Of a DNA stretch of 50,089 nucleotides, positions 23,765 through 47,832 are shown in pieces. Where the stretch lies: the NCBI GenBank assembly GCA_039821555.1, contig JBCBNX010000025.1:1-50089 (forward strand), read 5' to 3'. The notes beneath the pieces are model-generated. The model did not search any database. It saw only the letters and a program-made list of their open reading frames with translations, and was not told the origin of the DNA. This stretch comes from Bacteroidota bacterium (GTDB taxonomy: Bacteria > Bacteroidota > Rhodothermia > Rhodothermales > Rubricoccaceae). Position numbers and translations under genes: made by a program. Positions within the stretch are counted from its first letter, which is position 1. Every line of letters begins with the position of its first letter.

Positions 23765-23765
23765 G

Positions 23766-31263: not shown

Positions 31264-31579
31264 AGGACAAGCTGGGCACGTCGATGGAACAGGTACTCCA
31301 CCAAGGATCGCCCCATTGAGTGACACCACTCTGTCACTCAATGGGGCGTGCTCCTGTAGGCTCGTGTAATGTGAAGAAACGTTGGGGATGTTCAGTTTTT
31401 CGACGGGAAAATCGAAGAAGAAAGCGCTTTTTATTTAGATCCTGATGTTGCTCGCATAAATGAGGTGAAACGATATGGCTCAATGCCTTGAATTCCTAAG
31501 GGTGGCCTCCTATGTTTTATCCCGTCGCACCTGGTGCGATTGGTCTTCTAGCGTTCACCGGCGGTTCCGCCGGTGCGCC

Positions 31580-31625
31580 TGGGGCCGCAGCTCTTGGGGG
31601 AGAAGCTGCGGCCCCATTCTTTTGT
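31580..31625 (+). terminator. orphan intrinsic terminator on the + strand in the gap between two minus-strand genes
   Basis: Perfect 12-bp stem GGGGCCGCAGCT / AGCTGCGGCCCC with an 11-nt loop, followed by ATTCTTTTGTG. There is no annotated + strand gene upstream. Confidence 0.5.
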
Positions 31626-31708
31626 GCCACACCTGTGTCGGCAAGGCCTCTGGATATCCTGGGTTAAAGTGGCGCCGTATGGATCGGGCCTCGCTGTAGG
31701 AATCGGGC

Positions 31709-32383
31709 CTATGGCGCAGGCTGACCTTCCGCGGTCTCTTCGATTCCGACGACGCCCTGGAGCCGCGTGATGAAGTCAGCATAGGCCTCCACCGTCGAAT
31801 CCACGGCCAAGCCCGCCTGCATGGCCTCAAGAGCGTCAGCGTAGCGGAGCGACGCGATGAGGGAGTCGGCACGGGCCTTCACCTCCTCGGCAAAGGCAGA
31901 CGGCTCGGGCGGAGGCTGCTCCTCCGGCGGCTCGGGCTGGTCGCCGTCCAGCTGCCGCTTTACGAGTTCGTAGTTGACCTTCGCTTCGGCGTAGCGCGGG
32001 TCGAGCAGGAGCGCCTGGCGGAGGTGGTCGAGTGCCGCCTCGAAGTCCTGCGCGAGGGCGGCGGCGGTCCCGGCGTTGTAGCGCGCCCGCGCCTGCGCCC
32101 GCCGCGTCGGCGCGATCTGCGCCGCTTGCTCGAAGAGGTCGATAGCAGCCTCGGCGTCGCCTTCCTCGTGGCGCACGAGGCCGAGGTCGTAGAGCAGCCG
32201 CGCGCGCACGTCGAGGTCGGCGTCGGGCGTGTCTGTGGCTTGCAGGCCCTCGCCGAAGGCGACCGCCGCTGTTTCGAGGTCGCCCGCGAGGTAGGCGTCG
32301 AGGCCGCGCTGGCCCTCGCGCGCGCCATCGGGGGTGCATCCCGTCAGGAGCAGGAGGGCGAGCAGGATCCAGGGCCGGGTCAT
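31709..32383 (-). CDS. TPR-repeat lipoprotein
   Basis: Lipoprotein signal MTRPWILLALLLLTGC. Three to four TPR-like repeats (AYLAGDLETAAVAFGEGLQ..., LLYDLGLVRHEEGDAEAAIDLFEQAAQIAP, ARYNAGTAAALAQDFEAALDHLRQALLLDP). Confidence 0.7.
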   Translation of the reverse strand: MTRPWILLALLLLTGCTPDGAREGQRGLDAYLAGDLETAAVAFGEGLQATDTPDADLDVRARLLYDLGLVRHEEGDAEAAIDLFEQAAQIAPTRRAQARARYNAGTAAALAQDFEAALDHLRQALLLDPRYAEAKVNYELVKRQLDGDQPEPPEEQPPPEPSAFAEEVKARADSLIASLRYADALEAMQAGLAVDSTVEAYADFITRLQGVVGIEETAEGQPAP

Positions 32384-32810: not shown

Positions 32811-35327
32811 CTAGAAGTCCGTCGACTCGTCGCCGCCGCCTTGTCCGCGACCGCCGCGCTGGCGGTCGGGACGCCGCTGTGGTTGCTGGCCGAACGTGTA
32901 GTTGAACGTGAACGTCAGGAAGCGTGCCTGCCAGCGCCGCTCGCCCACCCGGTCGCTGAAGCGGTCACGGATGGCGAACTCGAAGCCGGCCGTGTCAAAC
33001 ACGTCGCCCATCGTCACGGCGAGGCTCGCGCGGTCGTCGAGCAGCTTCTGGCGGACCGAGAGGTTCGTGAACGAGAACGCCTCGATGAGGCCGTTGGGGA
33101 TGTCGCGCGGTGCGCGGTAGAAGCCGAAGAACTGCACCGCCGTCCCGGTCGGGAAGTTGTAGGACAGGTTGCCGCGCAAGCTCCACTGGAAGCCGTTGGC
33201 CGCGAGGTCGGTGTCGGCGTTTTGCCCGTCCGTCTGGAACTGGTAGGCGCTCAGCGTCACGAAGCTGCTGAAGCGCTGGCCAAAGCGGAGGCTGCCGACG
33301 GTCTCGACGCCGTAGTTCTCCTCCGTGTCGAAGTTGACGAACGTGCGCACGGTGCGGCCGTTGTCGTCGGGCGGGGTAGAGAAGCGCGTGATGGCGTCCG
33401 TGGTGCGGCGATAGAACGGCGTGACGGTGAGCGTCGTCTTCGGCGTAAACCAGGTGAGGCCGACCTCATACGAGTCCGTGTATTCGGGCTGCAGACCCGG
33501 ATTGCCGACGCGCACGTTGAGGGGGTCCTCGCGGTTTTCGAACGGATTGAGCGCGCGCGTCGACGGGCGGTTGATGCGGCGACTATAGCTGGCCTGTGCG
33601 GAGACGCCGTCGGTGAACTGGTAGGTGGCGAAGGCGCTCGGGAAGACGCTGAAGTAGTCGTTGTCGAAAGCACCCGAATCGTCCTGACCCGGCGCGGGCT
33701 GTGCGAGGTCGAACGTGGTGAAGGCCTGCTCCAGACGCGCGCCGGCCTTGAGGCTGAGCGGGCCGAAGCTGCGGCTGAGGAGGCCGTAGACGGCGTGGAC
33801 CTGCTCGTCGAACACGAAGCTGTTCGAGAGTTCGCCGACCGACTGGAAGGCGTCGAGCGCGAGGGTGTCGACCACGAAGTCGTCGTCGGTGCGGGTGAAC
33901 TCGCTGCGGAAGCCGGTTTCGAGGCTGAGATCGCCGAGAGGCTTCACCCAGTCGAGTTGAAGCGAGCCCTCCTGTTTGAAGCGGTCGGTCGTGTTGCGCT
34001 CGGTCACCGTCGGCGAGGCGACGGCGCCGTCGACAAGGGCTGAGCCTTCCGTGAACACGCTGAAGTCGTCGCGGGCGTCGGCGGTGTAGCGGGCCTCGAC
34101 GGTGAGCTCGTCCGTAGAGCGTGCCTGCACGCGTGAGAACGTGAGCGCCAGGTCGCCGTTGAGGTCATCCTCGTCCTCATCGCTGAGGCGGAAGGACTGC
34201 AGGCGGTTGCCGTCGTCGAAGAGTTCGTTGCGGAAGTTGACTTCTTCGTCGCTGCCGAACCCGAGGCTGAGGCGGCCCGAGGCCGAGAGCGTCATCTTGG
34301 GTGAGAGCTTGTAGTCCGCCGAGGCGCTCAGGAGGTGGCCGAGGCTCTGGCTCTCGCCATCGTCGTCGGTGAATCGGGTGTCGAGCCGCGGGGTCCCGTC
34401 TTCGGCGAGCGGGAGGGTGAAGTCGGCGTCATTGATGCCGCCGGACTCGCGGACGTTGCGGCGGAGCCCGTAGGTCACGAACGTGGTCCACGGCCCGCGC
34501 TGGTAGCCGACGTTGCCCGAGACGTTGTAGCCGCCGATGGTTTCGGCCGCCGCCGTGAGGCCGCCCGAGAGGCCGAGGTCGGTGTTCTCCTTCAGGATGA
34601 TGTTGATGATGCCGCCGAGGCCCTCCGGCTCGTACTTCGCGCTCGGGTTGGGGATCACCTCGACGCGCTCGACGCTCGACGCGGGCAGCTGCTGGAGGTA
34701 GCTCGCTAGGAACGCACCCGTGATCGGGACCGGCCGGCCGTTGATCTGGACGGCGACGTTCTGGTTGCCGCGCAGGCTGATGTTGCCGTCGATGTCGACC
34801 TCGATGGCCGGGACGTTGCGCAGGAGATCCGTCACCGAGCCGACGTCGGCCGCGATCTGGTCGGCGGTGTTGAAGACGGTGCGATCCACCTGCACCTCGA
34901 TGTCGTCACGGATGCCTTCCACCTGGACGCCCTCCAGGAGCGCCGCGTCCGGGACGAGTTCGAGGGTACCGAGGTCGGCGACGAGGCTGCCGGGTCGCAG
35001 TGCGAGGTCGTCGATGCGCTGGTTGACGTAGCCGACGTAGGTGAGCGTGAGGTAGTAGCGCCCCGGCCGCAGCGGGCGGATGTCGAAGCCGCCCTCGGCG
35101 TCGGTGAGCGCGCCCGTCACGAGCGACGAGTCGCGTGCGCTCCACACGGTCGCCGTGGCGAGCTCGACGGGTTGCCCCGTGTCGGCGTCGATGACGGTGC
35201 CGGTGATGGCGCCGCCGCGCATCTGTCCGGGCGGGCCGCCGGGACGTCCGCCGGGGCGCTGGGCAAAGACCGGGAGGGCGAGCGCTCCGACGAGGAGCAG
35301 CAGGAGCAGGCGCGTACCGATGCGCAT
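32811..35327 (-). CDS. TonB-dependent outer-membrane receptor with an N-terminal carboxypeptidase-regulatory-like domain
   Basis: Start at MRIGTRLLLLLLVGALALPVFAQ. CarbopepD_reg-like ITGTVIDADTGQPVELATATVW...YYLTLTYVGY. Plug and barrel regions follow. C-terminal F (..GGDESTDF). Confidence 0.85.
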   Translation of the reverse strand: MRIGTRLLLLLLVGALALPVFAQRPGGRPGGPPGQMRGGAITGTVIDADTGQPVELATATVWSARDSSLVTGALTDAEGGFDIRPLRPGRYYLTLTYVGYVNQRIDDLALRPGSLVADLGTLELVPDAALLEGVQVEGIRDDIEVQVDRTVFNTADQIAADVGSVTDLLRNVPAIEVDIDGNISLRGNQNVAVQINGRPVPITGAFLASYLQQLPASSVERVEVIPNPSAKYEPEGLGGIINIILKENTDLGLSGGLTAAAETIGGYNVSGNVGYQRGPWTTFVTYGLRRNVRESGGINDADFTLPLAEDGTPRLDTRFTDDDGESQSLGHLLSASADYKLSPKMTLSASGRLSLGFGSDEEVNFRNELFDDGNRLQSFRLSDEDEDDLNGDLALTFSRVQARSTDELTVEARYTADARDDFSVFTEGSALVDGAVASPTVTERNTTDRFKQEGSLQLDWVKPLGDLSLETGFRSEFTRTDDDFVVDTLALDAFQSVGELSNSFVFDEQVHAVYGLLSRSFGPLSLKAGARLEQAFTTFDLAQPAPGQDDSGAFDNDYFSVFPSAFATYQFTDGVSAQASYSRRINRPSTRALNPFENREDPLNVRVGNPGLQPEYTDSYEVGLTWFTPKTTLTVTPFYRRTTDAITRFSTPPDDNGRTVRTFVNFDTEENYGVETVGSLRFGQRFSSFVTLSAYQFQTDGQNADTDLAANGFQWSLRGNLSYNFPTGTAVQFFGFYRAPRDIPNGLIEAFSFTNLSVRQKLLDDRASLAVTMGDVFDTAGFEFAIRDRFSDRVGERRWQARFLTFTFNYTFGQQPQRRPDRQRGGRGQGGGDESTDF

Positions 35328-36190
35328 GGCGGTGGGGAGTCGAAGGGGAGAAGGGCGAAGGAGAAGGGGAGCGGAGCACCTGGTGGACAGGCACGTACCG
35401 GCGCGCGGTGAGACCCGTGGCAACGTTCGTAGCTCCAAGGGTATACCCTGCAGTGCTTCTATGTGTCACACCGGGGTGTCGGTTGCGTGAAGTGTGCGCG
35501 CAGCCCGTGGACGACCGGAGCACTACGCAGGTTCGCGCGGCTCCGTTGCATGCGGTCGTTGTCACATCCTGCCGTCTGTGCGGAGGGGCTACGGAAGCAG
35601 GCTCACGGAGACAGATCGGTGCCCTCCATGTCGCCGCTCGGGGCCGCTGGCGACCGCTCGTCTACCCACAAACACCGCTCGCGGTCACGGCAGCCGGTTG
35701 CCCCACGCAGCCTCGGCTACCCTGTGGGTGTCTACTCAGCAAGGTTGGCGCGCACGCGAGTGCGCCCTCGCCTGTAGGTAACAAATGCCATCGGCGCATC
35801 GGCGTTGACGTAGCGACTTGCTGACGCAACGACTTTGGCGGAGGAGTGTGCCGTCGCCCGAAAGCGGCTCGTGGGGACGTGGCGCATCTACGAGGGCGAC
35901 GGCACCCTCCGCCCTACACTGCCCGGTGCAGTGACCAACGGGCACCCGGTGGAGAGCCAGCGCCTGGGCGATGTACACCATGGTTATGCTAGGCGCTTTA
36001 AAATGCTTGGATAGGGCACAATCGGAAGCGCTCCCGTAACCAGACGGGTAGGTTGCGTATACCACCGGTGTCTTTCGGCAACGCCCGCGGATGCTGGACT
36101 CCACGAGGGGGTCCGCGTTATCCTTGCGGGCCGTCGCCCCCACTGGCGCTGCGCCCGAATGAGGGTCTGTAGCGCCGAGCCGAGCCGCTC

Positions 36191-36835
36191 ATGCTGGAGT
36201 TTCTATCCTCGGGCCCGCTGCTGCCCCTCACGGTCCTCCTCGCCATCGTCGGGGTCTACTGGCTGTTCGTCATCCTGGGCGCGCTCGACCTCGACTTCCT
36301 CGACGTGGACTTCGACGCGACGGACGCGGACGTGGACCTCGACTTCGAAGTCGATGCGGATGTGGATACCGGACTCTCGGGGTGGCAGCAGGCGCTGTCG
36401 TTCCTGCACCTCGGCATCGTGCCGTTCATGGTCGTCTTCAGCGTGTTCGTGCTGAGCTGGTGGACGGCCGCCGCCATCGGGTTCTTCGTGCTCGGCCTCG
36501 GTGCGCTCGTCGGGCTAGGCGGCAGCGCTTTGCTGGCCATCCTCGCGACGAAGGTGCTCACATGGCCGCTCGCGGTCCTCTTCCGCAAGCTCAAAGCCGC
36601 AGAGGCTCCGGTGCAGATTATCGGGCGCGTCTGCACGGCGCTCACCGCCATCGACCACGAGCGGCTCGGGCAGGCCGAGCTCGCCACCGACGGCGCGCCG
36701 CTGCTGCTCACCGTCAAGACCACCCAGCCCGGCGAGCGGGTCGCGCGCGGAGAACGCGCCCTCGTGGTCGCCCGCAGCGACGACGGGCAGGTCTACCTCG
36801 TAGATCCCGTCGCCGTCCAGCAGGCCACGGTCTGA
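36191..36835 (+). CDS. NfeD/YqiJ-like membrane protein (flotillin-associated, C-terminal OB-fold)
   Basis: N-terminal TM helix, an unusual acidic D-rich segment (LDLDFLDVDFDATDADVDLDFEVDADVD) and two more TM helices. A C-terminal beta-rich OB-like domain (IGRVCTALTAIDHERLGQAELATDGAPLLLTVKT...ALVVARSDDGQVYLVDPV) follows. It sits immediately upstream of the flotillin gene, as in yqiJ-yqiK and nfeD-floT pairs. Confidence 0.6.
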   Translation: MLEFLSSGPLLPLTVLLAIVGVYWLFVILGALDLDFLDVDFDATDADVDLDFEVDADVDTGLSGWQQALSFLHLGIVPFMVVFSVFVLSWWTAAAIGFFVLGLGALVGLGGSALLAILATKVLTWPLAVLFRKLKAAEAPVQIIGRVCTALTAIDHERLGQAELATDGAPLLLTVKTTQPGERVARGERALVVARSDDGQVYLVDPVAVQQATV

Positions 36836-36838
36836 TCC

Positions 36839-39058
36839 TTGCGGCTCGCTGCCGCCCTCCAGTTTCAACGTTTTTCTGGCCCCACCCTCTCTGTCATGGA
36901 AGCATTCTATAACATCGCCGCGGTCGTTGTCGGCTTTGTCGCGCTTATATCCCTTGGGCTAATTGCCCTGGTCGCCAAGTTTTACAAAAAGGTCGAGCAA
37001 GGCCGTGCCCTCGTGCGCACCGGTGTCGGCGGCACGAAGGTCGCCTTCTCGGGGATGTACGTCTTCCCGGTGGTCCACCGCTCCGAGCTGATGGACATCT
37101 CGCTCAAGCGCGTCGAGATCTCGCGCACGGGCAAGAACGGCCTCATCTGCAAGGACAACATGCGCGCCGACATCCAGGTGGCCTTCTTCGTGAAGGTCAA
37201 CAAGGACGAGCAGAGCGTGCAGACCGTCGCCGAGTCCATTGGCACCGTGCGTGCCTCGGACCCGCAGGCGCTCATCGAGCTGTTCGACGCCAAGTTCTCG
37301 GAGGCGCTCAAGACGGTCGGCAAGAACTACGACTTCGTCGACCTCTACAACAGCCGCGAGACGTTCAAGGAGGACATCCTCAACGTGATCGGCACTGACC
37401 TGAGCGGCTACGCGCTCGAAGACGCGGCCATCGACTACCTGGAGCAGACGCCCGTCGAGACGCTCGACCCGGACAACATCCTCGACGCGGAGGGCATCAA
37501 GAAAATCACCGACCTGACGGCGCGGCAGGCCGTGCTCGCCAACGAGATCAACCGCGAGAAGGAGAAGACGCTCAAGAAGCAGGACGTGGAGGCCCGCGAG
37601 GCCATCCTCGAACTGGAACGCCAGCTTGCGGAAAAAGAGGCGAGCCAGCGCCGTGAAGTCGAGACCGTACAGGCGCGCGAGACTGCCGAGACGGAGCGCG
37701 TACGCCAGGAGGAGCGCCTCAAAGCTGAGCGCGCCCGCATCCAGACCGACGAGGAGGTCGAGGTTGCCGAGCAGAACAAGCAGCGGCAGGTGCTCGTCGC
37801 GGAGAAGAACCGCCTGCGCACTGATGCCGTCGAGACGGAGCGCGTGGAGAAGGACCGCCAGCTCGAAGCCACCGAGCGCGAGCGCGTGGTCGAGCTCGCC
37901 CGCATCGAGAAGGAGAAGGCGCTCGAAGAGGAGCGCAAGACGATCCAGACCGTGATCCGCGAGCGCGTGATGGTCGAGAAGTCGGTCGTCGAGGAGGAGG
38001 AAAAGATCAAGGACACCCGCGCCACCGCCGAGGCCGAGCGCACGAAGTCGGTCGCGCTGACGTATGCCGAGCAGCTCGCCGAAGAGGCGAAGGTGCAGGA
38101 GACGAAAGCCGCCGAGGCGAAGCGCCTCGCCGCCGTCGAGGCCGCGCAGCAGCGCGTCGTCGAGGCCGAGGCTGAGCAGGAGGCCGCCGAGAAGGAGGCC
38201 GCCGCTATGAAGACGCTCGCCGCCGCGCGCGCCGAGGAGGAAGCCACCGTGGGCCTCTCGGAGGTCCGCGTGATGGAGGCCCGCGCCGCCGCCGTCCGCG
38301 AGGAGGGCACCGCCGAGGCCGACGTGCTCAAGCTGAAAGCCAGCGCCGAGGCGGAGGCCATCCAGGCCAAAGCGCTCGCCGAGGCCGAGGGCAAGAAGGC
38401 CCTCGCCGATGCTACGGAGGCGCAGGGCTCCGCCGAAGCGGAGGTCATGAGCCGGAAGTACGCCGCCGAAGCCGACGGCATCCGCCAGAAGGCCGAGTCG
38501 ATGAAGGTGCTCGACGGCGTCGGCAAGGAGCACGAGGAGTTCAAGCTCCGCCTGGAGAAGGACAAGGAGGTCGAGCTGGCGCAGATCGCCGTCCAGAAGG
38601 ACATCGCGCTGGCGCAGGCCGAGGTGCTCCGCGCCGGCCTCGAAGCGGCCAACATCGACATCGTCGGTGGGGAGTCGATGTTCTTCGAGAAGATCGTCGG
38701 GGCGATCACGCAAGGCCGGTCGGTGGACCGCCTCGTGGACGGCTCGGACGTGCTCAGCGAGGTCAAGGAGGCGTTCCTCTACGGCGAGGGCGCGCTCGGC
38801 GGCGGTGCGCTCGGCGACGGCGCCGACGGCGGTGTCCCGATGCTGGGCGACGGGCTCATCGCCCGCGTGCGCGGCCTCGTGGCGCAGACTGGCCTGGGCA
38901 CGGACGACGTGAAGAACCTCACGCTCTCGGCGCTACTCGTGAAGCTGATGGCGCAGACCGAGGACGCCGCCGACGCGACGGCGCTAGAGCAGATGCTCCG
39001 CACCGTGCGCCAGCTCGGTCTCGGCGACCAGAAGGCCAGCACGCTCGGGCTGAAGTAG
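36839..39058 (+). CDS. flotillin-like SPFH/band-7 protein with a very long coiled-coil region (YqiK/FloT-like)
   Basis: N-terminal TM anchor plus SPFH domain (ALVRTGVGGTKVAFSGMYVFPVVHRSELMDISLKRVEISRTGKNGLICKDNMRADIQVAFFVKV). About 400 aa of E/A/R/K-rich heptad-like coiled coil follows. 739 aa. Confidence 0.85.
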   Translation: MRLAAALQFQRFSGPTLSVMEAFYNIAAVVVGFVALISLGLIALVAKFYKKVEQGRALVRTGVGGTKVAFSGMYVFPVVHRSELMDISLKRVEISRTGKNGLICKDNMRADIQVAFFVKVNKDEQSVQTVAESIGTVRASDPQALIELFDAKFSEALKTVGKNYDFVDLYNSRETFKEDILNVIGTDLSGYALEDAAIDYLEQTPVETLDPDNILDAEGIKKITDLTARQAVLANEINREKEKTLKKQDVEAREAILELERQLAEKEASQRREVETVQARETAETERVRQEERLKAERARIQTDEEVEVAEQNKQRQVLVAEKNRLRTDAVETERVEKDRQLEATERERVVELARIEKEKALEEERKTIQTVIRERVMVEKSVVEEEEKIKDTRATAEAERTKSVALTYAEQLAEEAKVQETKAAEAKRLAAVEAAQQRVVEAEAEQEAAEKEAAAMKTLAAARAEEEATVGLSEVRVMEARAAAVREEGTAEADVLKLKASAEAEAIQAKALAEAEGKKALADATEAQGSAEAEVMSRKYAAEADGIRQKAESMKVLDGVGKEHEEFKLRLEKDKEVELAQIAVQKDIALAQAEVLRAGLEAANIDIVGGESMFFEKIVGAITQGRSVDRLVDGSDVLSEVKEAFLYGEGALGGGALGDGADGGVPMLGDGLIARVRGLVAQTGLGTDDVKNLTLSALLVKLMAQTEDAADATALEQMLRTVRQLGLGDQKASTLGLK

Positions 39059-39120
39059 CCGCCGAGCCGCAGCGTGCTCGGACGGCTCCCCCCGCTTGAC
39101 GCGCCTCGACGGCGGTCAAG

Positions 39121-39148
39121 CTGTCCCCCTCACCCGTGAGGGGGACAG
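39121..39148 (+). terminator. perfect 12-bp GC-rich hairpin between the flotillin gene and the giant ATPase gene (candidate attenuator or partial terminator)
   Basis: CTGTCCCCCTCA-CCCG-TGAGGGGGACAG. The downstream U-tract is weak (TTCGAAG). Confidence 0.3.
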
Positions 39149-39285
39149 TTCGAAGAGCGAAGCGTCGTCAGACGCGGAGGCGATGAGAACGGGGGGAGCC
39201 GAGCAGCGCTGGGTGCTCGAACTAGTCCAGAGCGTCTTGCTGCCGCCAGCCTTAGCCCATCTCCAACACTCCGTCCCATCCCCGT

Positions 39286-42200
39286 ATGGAACCGGCTCGC
39301 CCCTCCGCTCCCGACCTCGCGCCCGTCGCTGGCAACGACGTGCCGCCCAGCGGCGCGTCCGGCGACGGCGCCCCGGCTGGCACTGCGCCGAACGCGACGC
39401 CTGCGCTCGAAGGCGGCACGTACGAGTTGCTCCGCGACCGCCTCGCACAGCACGCCCGTACGCTCCAGACGCGCCTCCAGACGCTCGACGAGGCCCGCCG
39501 CGCCGTCTTCGGCAGCACCGACCTCGCGCTGATCGGCACGGCCGCGATCGCCACGCACCACAACGCCGTCGTGCGCGACCTCGTGGAGGTGCCCGGCCCC
39601 GACGGCCCGCGCCTGCTCGTCGGCTGCCACGTGCACCTCGGTCTGAAAACCGAGACGACGCTCGACGACGTGTTCGCGGCGTATGCCTTCGACGGCGACA
39701 CGGCGACCTACCGCGAGGCCCCGCTCGACGTGCTCGCCGACGAGCGCTTCGCGGAGGACTTCGCCAACCTCCATCGCTACTACAAGCAGGCGCGCTTTGC
39801 CCGCTTCGCCGAGCGCGGGCCGCACCTCTTCATGGTCTTCCAAGTCGGACAGCGCGCGGACGACATCAAGGTCTTCAAGTGGCTGCGCGGCGACGACGGG
39901 CTGCAGTACCTCGACAACCGCTCCGAGCACACCTTCGTCTACCCGACGCAGCAGGCCTTCCGCTGGCAGCGCACCACGCGCGACATGCACCGCGACGGCG
40001 CGCACCCGCACGTCTCCATCGAGGACCGCGTCTTCGTGGAGGCCGTCGGCGGCGACCTCACGGTGAAGGTGGAGGACAACACCGACAGCGGCCTCGGCGT
40101 CTACGCGGAGCCCGTCGACCACGCCGACCAAACACTCGACGACGCGGAGGTGCACTACGCCACCGCGGGGCCGCTTATCCTGATGCGCATTCGGCCCTAC
40201 CAGGAGGAGACGACGCGGCAGCTACTCTTCAACGAGAAGACGCAGGCCGTTCATCGCCTCGACGCGCTCGCACACGCGACGGTAGCGCTGCCCGAAGACC
40301 ACGGCATCGTCTACCCCGACGGCTTCGCGCTCGCAGCGGGCGGCGTCAAGCGCTTCGACGGCGTCCCGGCCGCCACCCGCTTCGAGCGGCAGATCGCCGC
40401 GCCCAACGGCGAGGACTTCCTCTTCGTTTTCCACGACGTCCAGACGGGCGAGTACGTCCTGCTGTCGTACAACCTCATCACGCAGGAGGTCGCCACGCCG
40501 GTCCGCTGCGGCGGCTACGCGCTGCGCCCCGACGGCGAACTCGTCTACGTGCGCCCCGAGCCCGAGCCGAGCAAGCACCACACGCTCCAGCGCTGGCGCT
40601 CGCCCTACCGCAGCCGCAACGGCGCCCCTCTTGCTGGCGAGGCACCCAGACAACAGGACGCGTACCTCTTCAAGGTGGGCAACAAGGACATCGTCCGCGC
40701 GCTCAGCGAGGGCTACGCGATCCTCAACCTCCTCGGCCGCGACGACGGCTACGTGGGCCTCTACGCCGACCTCGTCAAGGAGACGACGGGTCTGCTCGAC
40801 GCGACGTTCTGGCTCGACCACGAGGAGGCGGGCAACGTGGCCGAGGTGCTGCGCGGCATTCGCGAGACGGCGCAGCGAGCCCTCGCCGAGTTCGACAAGG
40901 TGCGCCGCCTCCGCCAGACGGCTCGGGAGCGCACGCAGGCCGCTGCGGCCGAGACGCAAGCGCTCCTCCAAACCGTCGAGCGGCGGACGTTCGAGTCAGT
41001 AGAGCAGTTTGTCGATGCGCTCGCAGAATTAAGAGCGGTGCGCGGGCGGCTGATCGCCCTGCGCGAGGTGCGCTACGCCGACGTGGCGCTCGCCGAGGCG
41101 CTCGAAACCGAGGCCGCCGAGGCGTCGGAGCGGCTGGCCCGCCGCATGGTCGAGTTCCTCCTCCGCGACGACGCCCTCGCGCCGTACGAGGCGCAGGTCG
41201 CCGAGGCCGCCGCGGCCATCGACGCGCTCGACACCGTCGCTGAGGCGCGCGGTGTGGCTGAGCGGTTCGACACCGCCGCCAGCGCGCTCGACCTGCTCAT
41301 CGAAACCGTCTCGAACCTCCAGATCGACGACGCGACGCAGACGACGCGCATCATCGACGCGGTCTCCGGGCTCTACGCGACGCTCAACGCCGAGCGCGCC
41401 CGCCTGAAGCGCCGCCGCGACCAGCTTGCCGAGACCGAGGGCGCGGCCGAGTTCGCCGCGCAGCTCAAGCTCCTCGAACAGGCCGTCACGAGCTACCTCG
41501 ACGTGGCCGAGACGCCCGAGGCGTGCGAGCAATACCTCACCCGCGCGATGGTGCAGGTGTCGGAATTGGAGAGCCGCTTCGCCGAGGCCGACCGCTTCAT
41601 CGAAGTGCTGTCCGAGCGCCGCGAGGAGGTCTACGCCGCGTTCGAGCAGAAGCGGCTCGCGCTCGTGGAGGCGCGCAGCCAGCGCACCGCCGCGCTCGAA
41701 CGCGCCGCCGAGCGCATCCTCGACGGCGTCCGCAGCCGCCTCGACCGCTTCGACACGGTCGAGGAGATCAACGGCTACCTCGCCGCCGACCTCATGGTGG
41801 CGAAGGTCCGCGACACCGTAGCCCAGCTCCGCGACCTCGGCGACGCGACCAAGGCCGACGGCCTCCAGACGGCGCTCAAGGCCGCACGCGAGCAAGCGAT
41901 CCGCCAGCTCAAGGACCGGAAAGAGCTGTTCGTCGACGGCCAGCCGATCCTGCGCCTCGGCACGCACCGCTTCGCCGTCAACACGCAGCCGCTCGACCTC
42001 ACAACGGTCCTCCGCGACGAGCGCCTCCACCTGCACCTCACTGGCACCGGCTTCTTCGAGCCGCTCGACGACCCCGCCATTGAGGCCGCGCGTTACCTCT
42101 GGACGCAGGAAGTCGTCTCCGAGACGGACGACGTCTACCGCGCGGAGTACCTCGCCTACCTCGTCTACCAGGCATCGCTCGTCGGGCAGTCGGAGATCCC

Positions 42201-44430
42201 GCCGCCCACGGCGCTACTCGCTGAGCCAGAGGACGACGAAGCACCTGATGCCGTGCTCGCCTCTGTACAGCGGTTCATGGCTCCGCGCTACGGCGAGGGC
42301 TACGTCAAGGGTGTGCACGACCACGACGCCGCGACGATCCTCCGCGCGCTGCTACGCCTCCACGCCGATGCCGGGCTGCTGCGCTATGGCCCCGCCGCCC
42401 GTGCTTGCGCGCTCGTCTGGTGGCACTGCTTCGCCGACGACGCGACGCGGACCCGCTTCGAGGCGCGGCTGCGCGGCCTCGGCACCGTCCAGCGGCTGTT
42501 TTCGAATGGCGAACACGATCTCGATGCCGCCACCGCCGCTCTCGCCATACCGCTCGTGGCGTTCGTCAACGACACCGGACTGTTCGAGGTCAGCATCGCG
42601 GAGCAAGCTGCGGCCTACCTCGCCCGCGAACTCGCGCAGGACGACCCGACCCGCTTCGTCGCCAGCCCCGAGGCTGTGACGTTGCTCGACGGCTTCGCCA
42701 AGGCGCTCGCCAAGCCAAAGGCAACGAAGGCGTTTGGCGACGCACTCGACCGTCTTATTGATGATCCTGCCGGCCAGGTCGCGCTCCTCCGCGATGCCCT
42801 TTCCACCTTTGCGAACCAGCAACACACGGCCTCAACGTTGAAAAGGAGTTCCCCTCCTGGACAGAGTCTTGCCCCCGCGCAGGCGGGGGAGGGGACAGGG
42901 GTGGTGGATCGAGCCGGGCATAAACCCGACAGGACTGACTCCGACCTCGTCGACGAAGCCGCCGCGATTCGCCTGGCCGATCTCCGCGAGAACGTGGATG
43001 TAGGCGCGACCGAGACGCGTGTCGAGTTGGCCGACCTGCGCGGGAGCCATGCGCGCGTGGACGATGGCACGTACCGCCTCGACTTCGCGGCCTTCCTCGA
43101 CCGGCTCGGCGCGTTCGCCAGGGAGCGCGTGCCCGCGTTCGCTGCGTTTGCCGCGCGCAAGCATGAGCGCATCCAGGCGCGGAAGGCCGAACTGCGCCTC
43201 GACGAACTCAAGCCGCGCGTCTTCTCGGGCTTCGTCCGCAACCGCCTCATCGACCGCGTCTTCCTCCCGCTCATCGGCGACAACCTCGCCAAGCAGCTCG
43301 GCACGGCGGGCGATACGACGCGCACGGACCGGCAAGGTCTGCTGCTGCTGATCTCGCCGCCGGGCTACGGCAAGACGACGCTCATGGAGTACCTCGCCGA
43401 CCGGCTGGGGCTCACGTTCGTCAAGATCAACGGCCCGGCCATCGGCCACGACGTGACGGCGCTCGACCCGGAGTCTGCACCCAACGCCGCCGCGCGCGAG
43501 GAGCTCGTCAAGCTCAACCTCGCCTTTGAGATTGGCGACAACCTGATGCTGTACGTCGACGACATCCAGCACTGCCACCCGGAGTTCTTGCAGAAGTTCA
43601 TCGCGCTCTGCGACGCCCAGCGGCGCGTCGAGGGCGTGTGGCGCGGGCAGCCGCGCACCTACGACCTGCGCGGCAAGAAGGTGGCCGTGGTGATGGCGGG
43701 CAACCCCTACACCGAGAGCGGCGCCCGCTTCCGCGTCCCGGATATGCTCGCCAACCGCGCCGACACCTATAACCTCGGCGACGTGATCGGCGAGACGGCG
43801 GACGCCTTCGCCAGCTCCTACCTCGAAAACGCGATGGGCGCCAACCCCGTCCTCGACGCCGTGGCGAGCCGCGCGCCCGACGACCTCCACGCGCTCGTCC
43901 AGGCTGCCGAGACCGACCGCCGCGACGGACTCGACCTCCAGGGCAACTATGCCCCCGACGAACTCGACGAGATCCTCGCCGTGCTGCGCCACCTGATCGC
44001 GCTGCGCGACGTGGTGCTGGGCGTCAACCAGGAGTACATCGCCAGCGCCGCGCAGAACGATGCCTACCGTACGCGCCCACCGTTCCTGCTCCAGGGCTCC
44101 TACCGCAACATGAACCGGCTCGCCGAGAAGGTCCTGCCCGCCATGACCGACGCCGAGCGCGACACGCTCGTGCGCAGCCACTACGAGCAGGAGGCGCAGC
44201 TTCTCACGAGCGGGGCCGAAGCCAACCTGCTGCGGCTCAAGGAACTGATGGGCTGGCTCACGCCCGACGAGGCCGCCCGCTGGGCCGAGATGCAGGCGAC
44301 GTTCCAGAAGAACCAGGCGTTCGCGGGCCTCGCCGACGGCGACCAAGTGGCGCAGGTGCTCGCGCAGCTTGCCGCCCTCACCGACGGCCTCGCCGCCATC
44401 CGCGATGTGCTGGCGCGCGGTGACGACTAG
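39286..44430 (+). CDS. giant (1714 aa) multidomain protein with a C-terminal MoxR/AAA_5-like AAA+ ATPase domain; function unknown
   Basis: Continuous ORF; ATG at 39286. Near residues 1340-1500: Walker A LLLISPPGYGKTTLMEYLADRLG, Walker B LMLYVDDIQHCHPEFLQKFIALCDAQRRV (MoxR-like DEINRA...-type), then VAVVMAGNPYTES. The central ~800 aa are strongly alpha-helical and A/L/E/R-rich. The N-terminal ~450 aa are of unknown fold. Confidence 0.8.
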   Translation: MEPARPSAPDLAPVAGNDVPPSGASGDGAPAGTAPNATPALEGGTYELLRDRLAQHARTLQTRLQTLDEARRAVFGSTDLALIGTAAIATHHNAVVRDLVEVPGPDGPRLLVGCHVHLGLKTETTLDDVFAAYAFDGDTATYREAPLDVLADERFAEDFANLHRYYKQARFARFAERGPHLFMVFQVGQRADDIKVFKWLRGDDGLQYLDNRSEHTFVYPTQQAFRWQRTTRDMHRDGAHPHVSIEDRVFVEAVGGDLTVKVEDNTDSGLGVYAEPVDHADQTLDDAEVHYATAGPLILMRIRPYQEETTRQLLFNEKTQAVHRLDALAHATVALPEDHGIVYPDGFALAAGGVKRFDGVPAATRFERQIAAPNGEDFLFVFHDVQTGEYVLLSYNLITQEVATPVRCGGYALRPDGELVYVRPEPEPSKHHTLQRWRSPYRSRNGAPLAGEAPRQQDAYLFKVGNKDIVRALSEGYAILNLLGRDDGYVGLYADLVKETTGLLDATFWLDHEEAGNVAEVLRGIRETAQRALAEFDKVRRLRQTARERTQAAAAETQALLQTVERRTFESVEQFVDALAELRAVRGRLIALREVRYADVALAEALETEAAEASERLARRMVEFLLRDDALAPYEAQVAEAAAAIDALDTVAEARGVAERFDTAASALDLLIETVSNLQIDDATQTTRIIDAVSGLYATLNAERARLKRRRDQLAETEGAAEFAAQLKLLEQAVTSYLDVAETPEACEQYLTRAMVQVSELESRFAEADRFIEVLSERREEVYAAFEQKRLALVEARSQRTAALERAAERILDGVRSRLDRFDTVEEINGYLAADLMVAKVRDTVAQLRDLGDATKADGLQTALKAAREQAIRQLKDRKELFVDGQPILRLGTHRFAVNTQPLDLTTVLRDERLHLHLTGTGFFEPLDDPAIEAARYLWTQEVVSETDDVYRAEYLAYLVYQASLVGQSEIPPPTALLAEPEDDEAPDAVLASVQRFMAPRYGEGYVKGVHDHDAATILRALLRLHADAGLLRYGPAARACALVWWHCFADDATRTRFEARLRGLGTVQRLFSNGEHDLDAATAALAIPLVAFVNDTGLFEVSIAEQAAAYLARELAQDDPTRFVASPEAVTLLDGFAKALAKPKATKAFGDALDRLIDDPAGQVALLRDALSTFANQQHTASTLKRSSPPGQSLAPAQAGEGTGVVDRAGHKPDRTDSDLVDEAAAIRLADLRENVDVGATETRVELADLRGSHARVDDGTYRLDFAAFLDRLGAFARERVPAFAAFAARKHERIQARKAELRLDELKPRVFSGFVRNRLIDRVFLPLIGDNLAKQLGTAGDTTRTDRQGLLLLISPPGYGKTTLMEYLADRLGLTFVKINGPAIGHDVTALDPESAPNAAAREELVKLNLAFEIGDNLMLYVDDIQHCHPEFLQKFIALCDAQRRVEGVWRGQPRTYDLRGKKVAVVMAGNPYTESGARFRVPDMLANRADTYNLGDVIGETADAFASSYLENAMGANPVLDAVASRAPDDLHALVQAAETDRRDGLDLQGNYAPDELDEILAVLRHLIALRDVVLGVNQEYIASAAQNDAYRTRPPFLLQGSYRNMNRLAEKVLPAMTDAERDTLVRSHYEQEAQLLTSGAEANLLRLKELMGWLTPDEAARWAEMQATFQKNQAFAGLADGDQVAQVLAQLAALTDGLAAIRDVLARGDD

Positions 44431-44437
44431 CGCACTC

Positions 44438-44929
44438 ATGGCGAAGACGCTTAACCAGATTGAAGGGCGCGGGCCTCAGCCTATGCCACCCGAGGTGAAG
44501 GGCCTGATAGCCAACGCTGAGCGGCTGATGGGCACACCTATCGATCAGTTTAGCGTGGGCGACCTGCGGCTCATGATCGGGCAGAACATGGGCACAGAAC
44601 ACCTGATGCCCAGAGCGCTCGGTGTGCTCGAATTGAATCCCCTCGTGTGCGGGACGTTCTTCCCTGGCGATCTGCTGAAGGCAACGTTCCGGCTCCCAGC
44701 AGTGTACTGGACGCAGCATCCGGCGCACCATGAGCGTGCGCTCGCCATCGCCCGCCAAGCACTAGACATCCTCGAAGCTCGCTGCGCCCGCTCGAAAGCG
44801 CGCTTCTATAAGCGGTACGGTACGCACCTCAACGAAGAGGAATGTTTGGATATCGACGAGCGTGACGTTAAGCAGTGGTGTCTGGATTTTCTCGCGAGCT
44901 ACGATGGGAGCGGCGTGGCAACCCGCTGA
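44438..44929 (+). CDS. small conserved-looking hypothetical protein, translationally coupled to the giant ATPase gene
   Basis: ATG at 44438, 8 nt after the TAG of the giant gene. 163 aa, MAKTLNQIEGRGPQPMPPEVKGLIANAERLMGTPIDQFSVGDLRLMIGQNMGTEHLMPRALGVLELNPLVCGTFFPGDLLKATF... I recognise no family. Confidence 0.6.
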   Translation: MAKTLNQIEGRGPQPMPPEVKGLIANAERLMGTPIDQFSVGDLRLMIGQNMGTEHLMPRALGVLELNPLVCGTFFPGDLLKATFRLPAVYWTQHPAHHERALAIARQALDILEARCARSKARFYKRYGTHLNEEECLDIDERDVKQWCLDFLASYDGSGVATR

Positions 44930-44951
44930 CCGCTCTTGCGTTTAGGCGAGC
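44930..44951. repeat. direct repeat, copy 1 (GCTCTTGCGTTTAGGCGAGC), left flank of the hicBA cassette
   Basis: Exact 20-nt match to 45504-45523. The extended imperfect match is GGCAACC(N8)GCTCTTGCGTTTAGGCGAGC. Confidence 0.75.
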
Positions 44952-44972
44952 ACATTCTAGCCCTACGACTGC

Positions 44973-45203
44973 ATGTCCAGACTCATCAAGATCATCGTCG
45001 AGAAGCACTCAGATGGGTACGTTGCCTACCCAGTTGGGTTGAAGGGCGTCGTCGTGGGACAGGGCGATAGCTATGAGGAGGCGCTTGCGGATGCGCGGAG
45101 TGCGGTGGCGTTCCACATCGAAACGTTCGGGCCGGAGGTGCTCGATAGCGATGACGGTCCCGTCTTGGAGGTGTTCGTAGCTGAAGCGACCGTAGCCGCC
45201 TGA
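44973..45203 (+). CDS. hicB: HicB-family antitoxin
   Basis: 76 aa, MSRLIKIIVEKHSDGYVAYPVGLKGVVVGQGDSYEEALADARSAVAFHIETFG. This is the HicB/UPF0150 RNase-H-like fold pattern. Confidence 0.8.
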   Translation: MSRLIKIIVEKHSDGYVAYPVGLKGVVVGQGDSYEEALADARSAVAFHIETFGPEVLDSDDGPVLEVFVAEATVAA

Positions 45204-45448
45204 TGTCGGAGCGCTTTCCCCGGGATGCCCCGCTGCGTCGCGTACTGGCGTCGCTCGAAGCGCTCGGCTTCCGGATCGTGCGCGAAGGCAACCACATCGC
45301 GATGCTGCATGAGGATGAGGACGGCACCCGGACGCCGCTGACGCTCCCCAACCATCGCACGATCAAAGGTTCTACCTTGCGCGCCATCCTCCGGCAAAGT
45401 GGCATTGGGCGGGACGAGTTTTTGAAGGTCTACCGCCGCGCCAAGTAG
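45203..45448 (+). CDS. hicA: HicA-family mRNA interferase toxin
   Basis: 81 aa, LRRVLASLEALGFRIVREGNHIAMLHEDEDGTRTPLTLPNHRTIKGSTLRAILRQSGI (YcfA/HicA dsRBD-like). The start overlaps the hicB stop (TGATG). Confidence 0.8.
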   Translation: MSERFPRDAPLRRVLASLEALGFRIVREGNHIAMLHEDEDGTRTPLTLPNHRTIKGSTLRAILRQSGIGRDEFLKVYRRAK

Positions 45449-45501
45449 CACGCCTCTGTGCGCCCAGACTGGATAGCACTTTCCACCGGGCAACCGACGG
45501 A

Positions 45502-45523
45502 CGGCTCTTGCGTTTAGGCGAGC
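45502..45523. repeat. direct repeat, copy 2, right flank of the hicBA cassette, about 20 nt upstream of the relA/spoT start
   Basis: GGCTCTTGCGTTTAGGCGAGC; see copy 1. Confidence 0.75.
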
Positions 45524-45543
45524 CCGTTGCACCAGGTCCCGCT

Positions 45544-47832
45544 ATGATCCAGGCCTCCGCCCACCTCGACGCGCAGCTTCGCGAACTCAAAGTCGACGCG
45601 AAGTACCGGCGCGGGCTGCGGGTACTGATCGAGCACGCCCGGCGGCGGCTGCCGAGCGTGGACGAGCAGCTGCTCCGCCGCGCCTTCCAGGTGGCCTACT
45701 GGGCGCACCGAAACGACCGCCGCGCCGACGGCTCGCTCTACATCGCGCACCCGCTCGAAGTCGCCACCATCGCCGCGCGGGACATCGCCTTCGACGACGT
45801 GACCGTGGTCGCCGCGCTGCTGCACGACACCGTCGAGGACACCGACATCTCGCTCGACTTCTTGGAGGCTGAGTTTGGAGCCGAGCTCGCGCAGGTCGTG
45901 GACGGCGTCACCAAGATCGACCACGTCTTCGAGAGCAAAAAGCTAGGCCGCGACGAGAACGTGCGCAAGCTCATGCTCTCGATGGCGAGCGACATCCGTG
46001 TCATCCTGGTGAAGTTCGCCGACCGGCTGCACAACATGCGGACGCTAGAGAGCCTCCCGCAGGCGAAGCAACTCCGCATCGCTTCGGACACGCTCGCGCT
46101 CTTTGCGCCGTTGTCGCACCGCTTCGGCCTCAACGCCATCAAGACGGAGTTGGAGGACCTCTGCCTGAAATACATCGACCCGGAGCGCTACCAGCACATC
46201 ACGACGGGGCTGAAGGCCAACCGGCGGCAGCGCGAGACGTACCTCCGCCGCTTCATCGAGCCCGTCCAGAAGGAGCTCGAAGGCGCGGGTCTGACGTTCG
46301 AGATCACCGGGCGCCCGAAGTCGATCTACTCGATCTACCGGAAGATGAAGGCGCAGGATAAAGACCTCGACGAGATCTACGACCTGCTCGCCATTCGCAT
46401 CATCCTGGAGAGCGAAGGCCGCCAGGGCCGCGAGGATTGCTGGCGCGTCTACTCGATCCTCACGGACCTCTACCCGCCCATTCCCGAGCGCTTCCGCGAC
46501 TTTATCTCGCTGCCGAAGTCGAACGGCTACCAGAGCCTCCACACGACCGTCATCGGGCCGAAGGGGCGGCGCATCGAGATCCAGGTGCGCACGCAGGAGA
46601 TGCACGAGATCGCCGAGCGCGGCGTGGCGGCGCACTGGAAGTACAAGGAGAAGAACGCCGACGGCTCCCGGAACAGCCCGCGCGCCGACGAGCGCCTCGA
46701 CTCGCTCTACTCGTGGGTGCGCGACATGCTCGAAAACCCGCAGCCCGACGCGGCGAGCGACTTCGTGCAGGAGTTCTCGCTCAACCTCTACGCCGAGGAG
46801 ATCTACGTCTTCACGCCCGCTGGCGACCTGCTCACGCTCCCGCGCGGCGCTACGCCCGTCGACTTCGCCTACCAGGTGCACACCGAGGTCGGCAACCGCT
46901 GCATCGGCGCTAAGGTCAACGGCAAGATGGTCCCGCTTTCGCACAAGCTGGCCTCCGGCGACCAGGTTGAGATCCTCACGTCGAAGAAGCAGTCGCCCAA
47001 CCCAGACTGGGCGAACTTCGTGGTCACGACGAAGGCGAAGGCCCGCATCCGGCAGCACATCAACGAGAAGCGCCGCAAGGCCGTCGACCAGGGCCGCGCC
47101 GTGTTTGAGAAGCGCCTCGCGAAGGCGGGCGTCGAGATCGACCAGCAGGCCATCGCGCGCACAGCGGCGAAGCTGAAGTTTCCCGACTCGCAGCAGGTCT
47201 TCTACGAGATCGGCACCGGCGCGTACGACGCCGACACGTTTATCACAGCGCTGCGCCGCGGTGCCGAGGCAGCCCGGGTCGAAACCGAACAGGCTAACGC
47301 CGAGACCGCCGAGGCGCAGGCGCGCTACCTCGACCAGGAGGCCACGCGCGTCACGCGCCAGGCCCGCGAGGCCAACCTCCCCGCGCTCATCGTCGACGGC
47401 GAGCCGATGTCGGACCTCGCCACGCGCTACGCCAACTGCTGCAACCCGATCCCCGGCGACGAGGTGGTCGGGTTCGCGAGCAAGACGGGCGCCATCACGA
47501 TCCACCGCGGCACGTGCCGCAACGCGCTCCACCTGATGGCCGAGCAGCCCGAGCGCATCCTGCCCGTGGACTGGAGCCGCCAAAAGGATGCGCAGTTCAT
47601 CGTCGGCCTGCGCATCATCGGCGAGGACCGCGTCGGCATCGTGAGCGACCTCACCACGATGATCTCGAAGAACCAGCGCACCAACATCCGCTCGATCACG
47701 GTCGAGAGCGAGGACGGCATGTTCGAGGGCAACCTCGTGCTCTTCGTGAGCGACCTCAAGCACCTGCAGCGGCTGATGGACCGCATGCGACAGATCGACG
47801 GCATCTTCGGCGTCTATCGGTTTGAAGAGTAG
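45544..47832 (+). CDS. spoT: bifunctional (p)ppGpp synthetase/hydrolase, RelA/SpoT family
   Basis: HD hydrolase domain (HPLEVATIAARDIAFDDVTVVAALLHDTVEDT), synthetase domain (RPKSIYSIYRKM...DLLAIRIIL...GYQSLHTTV), then TGS and C-terminal ACT. Start at MIQASAHLD. Confidence 0.9.
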   Translation: MIQASAHLDAQLRELKVDAKYRRGLRVLIEHARRRLPSVDEQLLRRAFQVAYWAHRNDRRADGSLYIAHPLEVATIAARDIAFDDVTVVAALLHDTVEDTDISLDFLEAEFGAELAQVVDGVTKIDHVFESKKLGRDENVRKLMLSMASDIRVILVKFADRLHNMRTLESLPQAKQLRIASDTLALFAPLSHRFGLNAIKTELEDLCLKYIDPERYQHITTGLKANRRQRETYLRRFIEPVQKELEGAGLTFEITGRPKSIYSIYRKMKAQDKDLDEIYDLLAIRIILESEGRQGREDCWRVYSILTDLYPPIPERFRDFISLPKSNGYQSLHTTVIGPKGRRIEIQVRTQEMHEIAERGVAAHWKYKEKNADGSRNSPRADERLDSLYSWVRDMLENPQPDAASDFVQEFSLNLYAEEIYVFTPAGDLLTLPRGATPVDFAYQVHTEVGNRCIGAKVNGKMVPLSHKLASGDQVEILTSKKQSPNPDWANFVVTTKAKARIRQHINEKRRKAVDQGRAVFEKRLAKAGVEIDQQAIARTAAKLKFPDSQQVFYEIGTGAYDADTFITALRRGAEAARVETEQANAETAEAQARYLDQEATRVTRQAREANLPALIVDGEPMSDLATRYANCCNPIPGDEVVGFASKTGAITIHRGTCRNALHLMAEQPERILPVDWSRQKDAQFIVGLRIIGEDRVGIVSDLTTMISKNQRTNIRSITVESEDGMFEGNLVLFVSDLKHLQRLMDRMRQIDGIFGVYRFEE

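Follow-up and report, generated by a model that had tools for sequence, protein, structure and literature searches.

Pairs of SPFH and NfeD proteins build oligomeric membrane scaffolds, according to work cited in PMC13086221. In Escherichia coli (YqiJ-YqiK) and Bacillus subtilis (YuaF-FloT) such a pair is encoded by an NfeD-like gene followed by a flotillin gene, with no third gene attached (PMC2636767). Larger operons were described by Ravi et al. (2024, mSystems, PMC11237479), in which CesT/Tir and PspA genes are combined with genes for a YqiJ/YuaF-type transmembrane (TM) protein, a Band-7/flotillin protein and a giant AAA+ protein composed of a beta-propeller, a coiled-coil and an AAA+ module (prototype Dokdonia donghaensis ANH61663.1, their Table S3). 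The same study found abbreviated operons, containing only the flotillin, YqiJ/YuaF and AAA+ ATPase genes, to be widespread and noted that these may work with a PspA encoded elsewhere, and that some versions in Proteobacteria add a PLD hydrolase (PMC11237479). Here we analyse a stretch of 50,089 nucleotides (nt) from a Bacteroidota metagenome-assembled genome (MAG; Rubricoccaceae, GenBank assembly GCA_039821555.1, contig JBCBNX010000025.1, positions 1 to 50,089), referred to below as the window, which carries a locus of this type. As an earlier note on this DNA had reported, four co-directional open reading frames (ORFs) are present on the plus strand, encoding an NfeD-like membrane protein (36191-36835), a flotillin (36896-39058), a giant ATPase (39286-44430) and a protein of 163 amino acids (aa; 44438-44929). 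The best overall explanation, to which we assign a probability of about 0.55, is that the first three genes (the trio) are a known membrane module with a proposed role in scaffold remodelling, and that the 163-aa gene and a HicAB toxin-antitoxin (TA) cassette downstream of it lie outside the module.

The trio and its described counterparts

A search begun from the giant encoded on the Pseudomonas fluorescens megaplasmid pQBR103 led to a 1746-aa protein of Pseudomonas aeruginosa, found in a cluster of 3222 sequences. The genes at this locus are arranged in the order DUF2170-PspA_IM30-213 aa-688 aa-giant-PLDc_2-YaeQ-RecJ-Peptidase_M4, and the locus is PA3732-PA3727, the bacABCDEF operon, beside recJ and lasB. 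Over 1675 aa the window giant shares 41% identity with the P. aeruginosa giant, BacE/PA3728, and on the basis of this identity together with the layout of the bac locus the window trio corresponds to bacC-bacD-bacE. Within the bacABCDEF operon (PA3732-PA3727; PMC2587700, PMC10948618), the genes bacC (213 aa, short NfeD), bacD (688 aa, the SPFH protein PaFlo3) and bacE (1746 aa, DUF3686, DUF7902 and AAA) match the trio in both order and orientation, whereas bacA (DUF2170, CesT/Tir-like), bacB (PspA) and bacF (PLD hydrolase) have no counterpart in the window, and the host is a gammaproteobacterium rather than a Bacteroidota MAG. The corresponding strain PA14 proteins have been termed a short NfeD (PA14_16160) and PaFlo3 (PA14_16180; PMC13086221).

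The three downstream proteins of the operons described by Ravi et al. have domain architectures identical to those of the window trio. The window locus differs in being the abbreviated form, although the full form is common among the Bacteroidota loci that we examined. The trio is thus very probably an abbreviated version of the Ravi et al. operon and orthologous to bacC-bacD-bacE, an identification that we hold with high confidence. The link between the Ravi-type giant and P. aeruginosa bacE, as its orthologue, is drawn in the present analysis by sequence comparison. The earlier note had not recognised the gene arrangement as a described system; Ravi et al. had in fact published the trio, and experimental work exists on one example of it, bacABCDEF.

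Several properties of the P. aeruginosa operon have been determined experimentally. The genes bacA-F are co-transcribed, as detected by reverse transcription PCR, and all partners are upregulated 6-13-fold in a bacA mutant (Wallart 2024, PMC10948618). Osmotic shock induces PA3731, the homologue of PspA (Mace 2008, PMC2587700), and biofilm formation, swarming, rhamnolipid production and virulence all depend on it (PMC2587700). PA3728 itself is listed as an 'ATPase' and is recurrently mutated in cystic fibrosis isolates (PMC8190622). The papers on the bac operon and on the Ravi operons nowhere describe the biochemistry of the giant. The P. aeruginosa antagonism-resistance cluster Arc2 was considered as a candidate for the same locus and rejected, as Arc2 comprises PA4317-23 and PA3729 appears there as immunoprecipitation background.

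The conservation of the trio was followed in 80 loci and further ones, using tblastn with the proteins of the window and with three other versions of the neighbours; upstream genes were counted in the 66 independent loci with at least 3.5 kb of upstream sequence, and PspA genes in the 65 with at least 7 kb. When neighbourhoods were searched with the giant as the query, a flotillin gene was found directly upstream and on the same strand in 63/66 loci, and in 57/66 the flotillin gene was itself immediately preceded by a detectable NfeD-like gene. The NfeD-like, flotillin and giant genes form a discrete, conserved and co-directional unit. Downstream of the giant there is no conserved gene (ORFs within 600 nt were clustered for 78 loci, giving families of at most four members). 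The discrete four-gene module seen by the earlier note therefore stands for three of its genes and falls for the 163-aa ORF.

In 20/65 loci, all of them from Bacteroidota, the unit extends upstream to genes for YbjN/CesT_Tir, PspA_IM30 and a divergent HTH(-peptidase S24) regulator, and this full PspA-linked form was found in Hymenobacter, Leeuwenhoekiella, Tenacibaculum and others. Trios that lack a PspA gene were recovered from Planctomycetota, Verrucomicrobiota, Desulfobacterota, Clostridia, Kiritimatiellota, Omnitrophota and an acidobacterium. Large plasmids likewise carry the trio, in Streptomyces, Deinococcus, Hymenobacter and P. fluorescens (pQBR103), and on one Streptomyces plasmid the order is hypothetical-flotillin-ATPase.

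Individual loci depart from these arrangements in several ways. On pQBR103 (locus L086, 1-13190) the gene order is YjfI-PspA-rhomboid-DUF2491-DUF350-DUF1190-glutathionylspermidine synthase-hypothetical-SPFH-giant, so that this megaplasmid merges the giant module with a polyamine-type PspA operon, two classes that Ravi et al. treat separately. In some Bacteroidota small unrelated genes separate flotillin from the giant (L003 7488-7916, L004 7076-7999); a DUF559 endonuclease-like gene is found there in one locus, and a DUF3784 gene together with a 157-aa ORF in another. Because such genes are found at this junction, it appears to tolerate insertions. In L022, L044 and L048 the giant occurs without a flotillin or NfeD-like gene in the upstream 7.7-10 kb or in the downstream flank (for L044, upstream only).

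The giant ATPase and its membrane partners

The giant is a soluble protein of 1714 aa that consists of a DUF3686 propeller, a helical stalk, a helical middle domain and a C-terminal AAA+ module of the MoxR clade. DUF3686 was matched by Pfam at residues 60-507 (39463-40806; E=1e-167), corresponding to an N-terminal helix followed by a divergent beta-propeller, and DUF7902 at residues 629-712 (41170-41421; E=3e-26), within a stalk that spans approximately residues 510-880 (~370 aa) and is rich in helix-favouring residues. Weaker matches to AAA_5, AAA_22 and AAA cover residues 1348-1476 (AAA_5/AAA 1353-1476), and the AAA+ core lies at 43342-43713. The protein was modelled as two pieces, each from alignments of 40 sequences. 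The N-terminal model (predicted local distance difference test score, pLDDT, 89) is propeller-like, and the model of residues 881-1714 (pLDDT 84) contains a small beta domain, a helical domain, a disordered linker and the AAA+ module, which bears a helical C-terminal extension. The AAA+ fold is closest to members of the MoxR/dynein/midasin clade. The Pfam matches, the composition of the stalk and the fold matches bear out the description in the earlier note of a long helical body joined to a MoxR/AAA_5-like ATPase, and profile and structure searches of the N-terminus have added to it the DUF3686 match and the propeller-like model. Comparison with PDB sequences identified no close solved relative of the giant; the matches to p97 and VAT were at the level of the Walker A motif and are uninformative.

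The residues expected to handle nucleotide are strongly conserved. Walker A (GYGKTT), sensor-1 (N1473), N1490-R1491 and the sensor-2-like motif GSYR (G1604-S-Y-R1607) are invariant in alignments of 15-40 homologues. Walker B, however, reads DD rather than the usual DE (LYVDDIQH; D1425 and D1426, encoded at window positions 43558-43563), and both aspartates are invariant in alignments of 15 and of 40 homologues. This substitution may mean that hydrolysis is slow, that the ATPase acts as a switch or that the catalytic residue is displaced.

More than 2500 homologues of the giant were found, and a scan of one genome per species placed it in at least 600 species, with approximately 50% identity maintained across phyla. 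The DUF3686 domain is represented by 668 clusters among 1.84 billion proteins, and all full-length matches are proteins of 1600-1900 aa with the domain at the N-terminus. DUF3686 is a family with one architecture.

Homologues of the giant carry the NCBI name 'DNA repair ATPase', and the Pfam text for DUF3686 reads 'ATPase involved in DNA repair', which would make the giant an SMC/Rad50-like coiled-coil ATPase acting on DNA. The long helical stalk fits such a protein, and recJ lies three genes downstream in P. aeruginosa. The giant has, however, a single C-terminal MoxR-clade AAA+ module rather than a split ABC head, and Pfam detected no nuclease or DNA-binding domain within it. Moreover, its conserved neighbours encode membrane proteins and PspA, NCBIfam holds no curated model for it, and the literature search found no use of the family name and no paper naming DUF3686 (PF12458) or DUF7902 (PF25472). 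We consider a role as a DNA repair ATPase extremely unlikely; the name is probably an inherited label without support, and a misleading one.

The flotillin-type SPFH protein has 720 aa when counted from the first ATG (36896-39058), within an ORF that opens at TTG 36839. It is composed of an N-terminal membrane anchor, a Band-7 domain, a coiled coil of ~400 aa, a conserved C-terminal 'IVGG' region and a tail. A single N-terminal hydrophobic TM helix is followed immediately by KFYKK, so that the remaining protein is probably cytoplasmic. At full length the protein has no Pfam match even at E<=10, possibly due to masking by the composition of the coiled coil; when the N-terminal ~300 aa were scanned alone Band_7 was matched (E=1e-6), as it was in 35/40 orthologues. 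The Pfam Flot C-terminal domain was not detected (E=4.6), and a profile of the N-terminal part matched no PDB sequence at E<=0.01. Conservation across phyla nonetheless covers the coiled coil, the 'IVGG' region and the tail, with the mean frequency of the commonest residue in blocks of 30 residues lying mostly at 0.6-0.8. YqiK and FloT are about 553 and 509 aa long; the window flotillin is about 200 aa longer and differs from both in a conserved extra C-terminal tail.

The NfeD-like protein, of the YqiJ/YuaF (short NfeD) type and 214 aa long (36191-36835), begins with a TM helix, followed by an acidic D-rich loop, further TM helices and a C-terminal beta-rich (OB-like) domain. Alone it gives a weak match to YqiJ_N (E=0.007, under the Pfam cutoff), which was matched by 16/40 orthologues with a best value of 3.6e-8. 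The sole PDB match of the family profile is B. subtilis YuaF (2k14), at E=0.55. These two proteins have the same domain types as the YqiJ-YqiK and YuaF-FloT pairs, and their assignment draws also on synteny. For none of the four proteins of the locus did NCBIfam or PADLOC offer a useful family.

A proposed role in scaffold remodelling

For the module, gene linkage, domain architecture, the fold class of the ATPase and conservation of its nucleotide motifs are established, and for one orthologous operon so are co-transcription and co-regulation. The recurrent conserved partners, PspA and the CesT/Tir chaperone, suggest a role in membrane stress. According to the mechanism that we propose, the flotillin and the NfeD-like protein would oligomerise into a scaffold or cage at the inner membrane, on its cytoplasmic side, and the giant would form an AAA+ ring, oligomerising through its AAA+ module, with its stalk-borne propellers docked either on this scaffold or on a PspA/ESCRT-III-like polymer whose gene lies elsewhere in the genome. 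By hydrolysing ATP the giant would then assemble or disassemble the scaffold or the PspA polymer, or clear clients from it, under membrane or osmotic stress, in a mode resembling the remodelling of targets by MoxR ATPases or the recycling of ESCRT-III by Vps4. By analogy with these systems, ATP-driven remodelling of the flotillin/NfeD (and PspA) scaffold under membrane stress is the likeliest role, although as a mechanism it is tentative, at somewhat short of even odds. A more specific form of it is doubtful, in which the DUF3686 giant would have as its dedicated task the remodelling, at the expense of ATP, of flotillin/NfeD cages and also of PspA/ESCRT-III polymers in genomes that have them. 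It would then be a MoxR-clade hexamer gripping the dome of the cage with six propellers and acting as a bacterial functional counterpart of Vps4.

MoxR AAA+ ATPases such as CbbQ, NorQ and RavA are approximately 250-500 aa in length and are normally paired with a VWA-domain partner. The giant differs from them in its 1714 aa, in having a propeller and a stalk of its own, and in carrying DD instead of DE in Walker B; propeller and stalk together may act as a built-in adaptor that replaces the VWA partner. The likeness to Vps4-ESCRT-III and PspF-PspA is by analogy alone, an AAA+ ATPase being genetically coupled to a membrane-remodelling polymer in each case (PMC11237479), and the AAA+ clade differs, being MoxR in the giant rather than classic or NtrC. 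The giant also lacks an MIT domain.

Several points weigh against this explanation of the trio. The remodelling function derives from gene linkage and from analogy to MoxR and Vps4. The DD version of Walker B is present in every homologue, and for this reason the catalytic competence of the giant is not certain. No VWA domain appeared among the Pfam matches of the four genes, in the scanned flanks or in the neighbour lists of other loci. A tblastn search of the 50-kb window with PspA and YbjN from Hymenobacter and from L004 returned nothing, and since the window lacks both PspA and CesT/Tir, the PspA connection is not demonstrable for this genome. In 3/66 loci the giant has no nearby flotillin. 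Finally, single and multiple deletions of SPFH genes in P. aeruginosa, including PaFlo3/BacD, produced no pronounced laboratory phenotype (PMC13086221).

The trio occurs in at least 600 bacterial species from many phyla, and its 1700-aa ATPase probably bears the wrong name in databases. The present analysis joins the Pfam families DUF3686 and DUF7902, the operons described by Ravi et al. and the bac operon of P. aeruginosa, which is open to experiment and affects biofilm formation, swarming and virulence. Together these provide a concrete organism and hypothesis for the energy-dependent step of flotillin scaffolds. If the more specific form of the mechanism is correct, then no energy-consuming partner of flotillin-type (YqiK/FloT) SPFH scaffolds would have been known before the giant, and remodelling by it would explain the turnover of flotillin/NfeD assemblies. 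As regards the window, the analysis mainly corrects the earlier reading: three genes constitute a known module, an abbreviated member of a type that has been computationally described and marginally characterised, and both the fourth gene and the TA cassette were inserted as accessories.

The 163-aa gene, the variable islet and the flanks

The 163-aa ORF (44438-44929) is a member of the Pfam family CdiI_3 (71.3 bits against a cutoff of 28, E=7e-20), and its relatives are named 'contact-dependent growth inhibition system immunity protein' by NCBI. The earlier note had treated this ORF as a translationally coupled component of the module, and according to that model all four genes would encode one machine, with the 163-aa protein serving as an adaptor or regulator of the giant. 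The TAG stop of the giant (44428-44430) is indeed followed after 7 nt by the ATG of the 163-aa ORF (44438) on the same strand, and the arrangement is retained in a close relative, L006, which is ~91% identical to the window in nucleotide sequence and keeps the CdiI_3 gene next to the giant. A gap of 7 nt would permit co-transcription or translational coupling and is uninformative on shared function. Synteny speaks against the four-gene machine: a CdiI_3 gene near the giant was found only in this MAG, in L006 and in a second close relative, L088, and a CdiI_3-like ORF downstream of the giant is absent from the other 78 loci with an examinable downstream flank. In L088 the order is giant, an unrelated 166-aa ORF, CdiI_3 and relA/spoT, without HicAB, so that a different ORF separates the giant from the CdiI_3 gene; this 166-aa ORF has no Pfam match and resembles neither the 163-aa ORF nor any part of the window. 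Nucleotide identity between the window and L088 is 94% at the 3′ end of the giant and 92% from relA onwards, compared with 81% for the CdiI_3 gene.

Homologues of the 163-aa protein number 20 at E<=1e-3. Two distant ones adjoin polysaccharide-export genes and a type III secretion cluster, respectively, with no giant nearby. The 163-aa gene adjoins the module but is not part of it, and the four-gene reading, which we regard as very unlikely, is largely refuted by synteny. No cognate CdiA or toxin gene lies immediately upstream of the 163-aa ORF. Since that position is occupied by the gene of the giant, a protein devoid of toxin domains, the 163-aa gene is best described as an orphan immunity gene.

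The HicAB cassette (44973-45448, plus strand) consists of a HicB-like 76-aa ORF without a Pfam match (44973-45203), which overlaps the gene of the HicA toxin (45203-45448; Pfam HicA_toxin, E=4e-13). It is flanked by a 40-nt direct repeat whose copies are 85% identical, the left at 44917-44956 and the right at 45489-45528, just upstream of relA/spoT (45508-47832). In L088 the repeat is present as a single copy, located exactly at the CdiI_3/relA junction, and there is no cassette. HicAB therefore looks like a clean insertion accompanied by duplication of a target or recombination site, as would fit the inserted TA cassette that the earlier note had placed downstream of the four genes and that the HicA match, the repeats and the single copy in L088 now support.

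The interval between the giant and relA/spoT differs in the three close relatives. In the window (44431-45507) it contains CdiI_3 and HicAB, in L088 (1313-2463) the 166-aa ORF and a divergent CdiI_3 gene, and in L006 (~7333-8531) CdiI_3 and HicB, with ~650 nt of extra sequence between the two. These differences mark the interval as a short islet of variable content, in which immunity and TA genes accumulate; HicAB entered this islet, which also harbours the CdiI_3 gene, at a later time.

The contents of the islet also bear on a suggestion of the earlier note that the locus might be antiphage. Here, the trio would serve in defence against phages or competitors; the SPFH scaffold and giant NTPase would detect infection or an assault on the envelope, and the neighbouring immunity and TA genes would mark a defence islet. 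The CdiI_3 immunity gene and HicAB cassette just downstream would be in keeping with such a role, as would the patchy distribution of the trio, which includes large plasmids (pQBR103, Streptomyces linear plasmids, Deinococcus), and the addition in proteobacterial versions of a PLD-family hydrolase, a common effector type (PMC11237479). However, the immunity and TA genes are lineage-specific and absent from the other loci, and the locus is flanked by housekeeping genes, namely relA/spoT and the gene of a TonB-dependent receptor. PADLOC-DB 2.0 gave no match at E<=0.01 to any of the four proteins, and no phage homologues were found. The recurrent partners, PspA (20/65 loci) and the CesT/Tir chaperone, point instead to membrane stress, and the degree of conservation across phyla, with ~50% identity in the giant and block values of 0.6-0.8 in flotillin, appears unlike that of rapidly diversifying defence genes. 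A defence function thus gains no support from these searches and flanks, and we judge it improbable.

The trio is preceded by a divergent gene for a TonB-dependent receptor (32811-35438, minus strand). The intergenic region between this gene and the NfeD-like gene (35439-36190) is presumed to contain the promoter of the module. It measures 752 nt to the longest possible start of the receptor gene (35438); the earlier note had correctly seen a gap here, although its length of ~860 nt would need a later receptor start. Within the gap there is no ORF with a Pfam match and no Rfam family, a terminator scan found nothing relevant to the module, and no sigma-70 consensus promoter was identified on the plus strand by a scan that does not cover Bacteroidota promoters.

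The genomic setting of the locus is an ordinary chromosome. At its start (positions 1-857) the window carries the last 650 nt, at the 3′ end, of a 23S rRNA gene and, after it, a 5S rRNA gene. Type IX secretion system (T9SS) sorting domains occur in other genes of the contig, in keeping with its assignment to Bacteroidota. The G+C content of the window is ~67%, and for this reason the many overlapping antisense ORFs are probably spurious. A 241-aa ORF on the minus strand (30616-31341) matches the Rad52/Rad22 family of single-strand-annealing proteins (E=8e-16), and beside it the local G+C content dips to 0.61 (31001-32000) compared with ~0.68; together these may represent the remnant of a prophage or mobile element. 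The lowest G+C content of the window, 0.578 against ~0.67 on both sides, is found at 23001-24000, a segment that holds the ORF 22985-23764.

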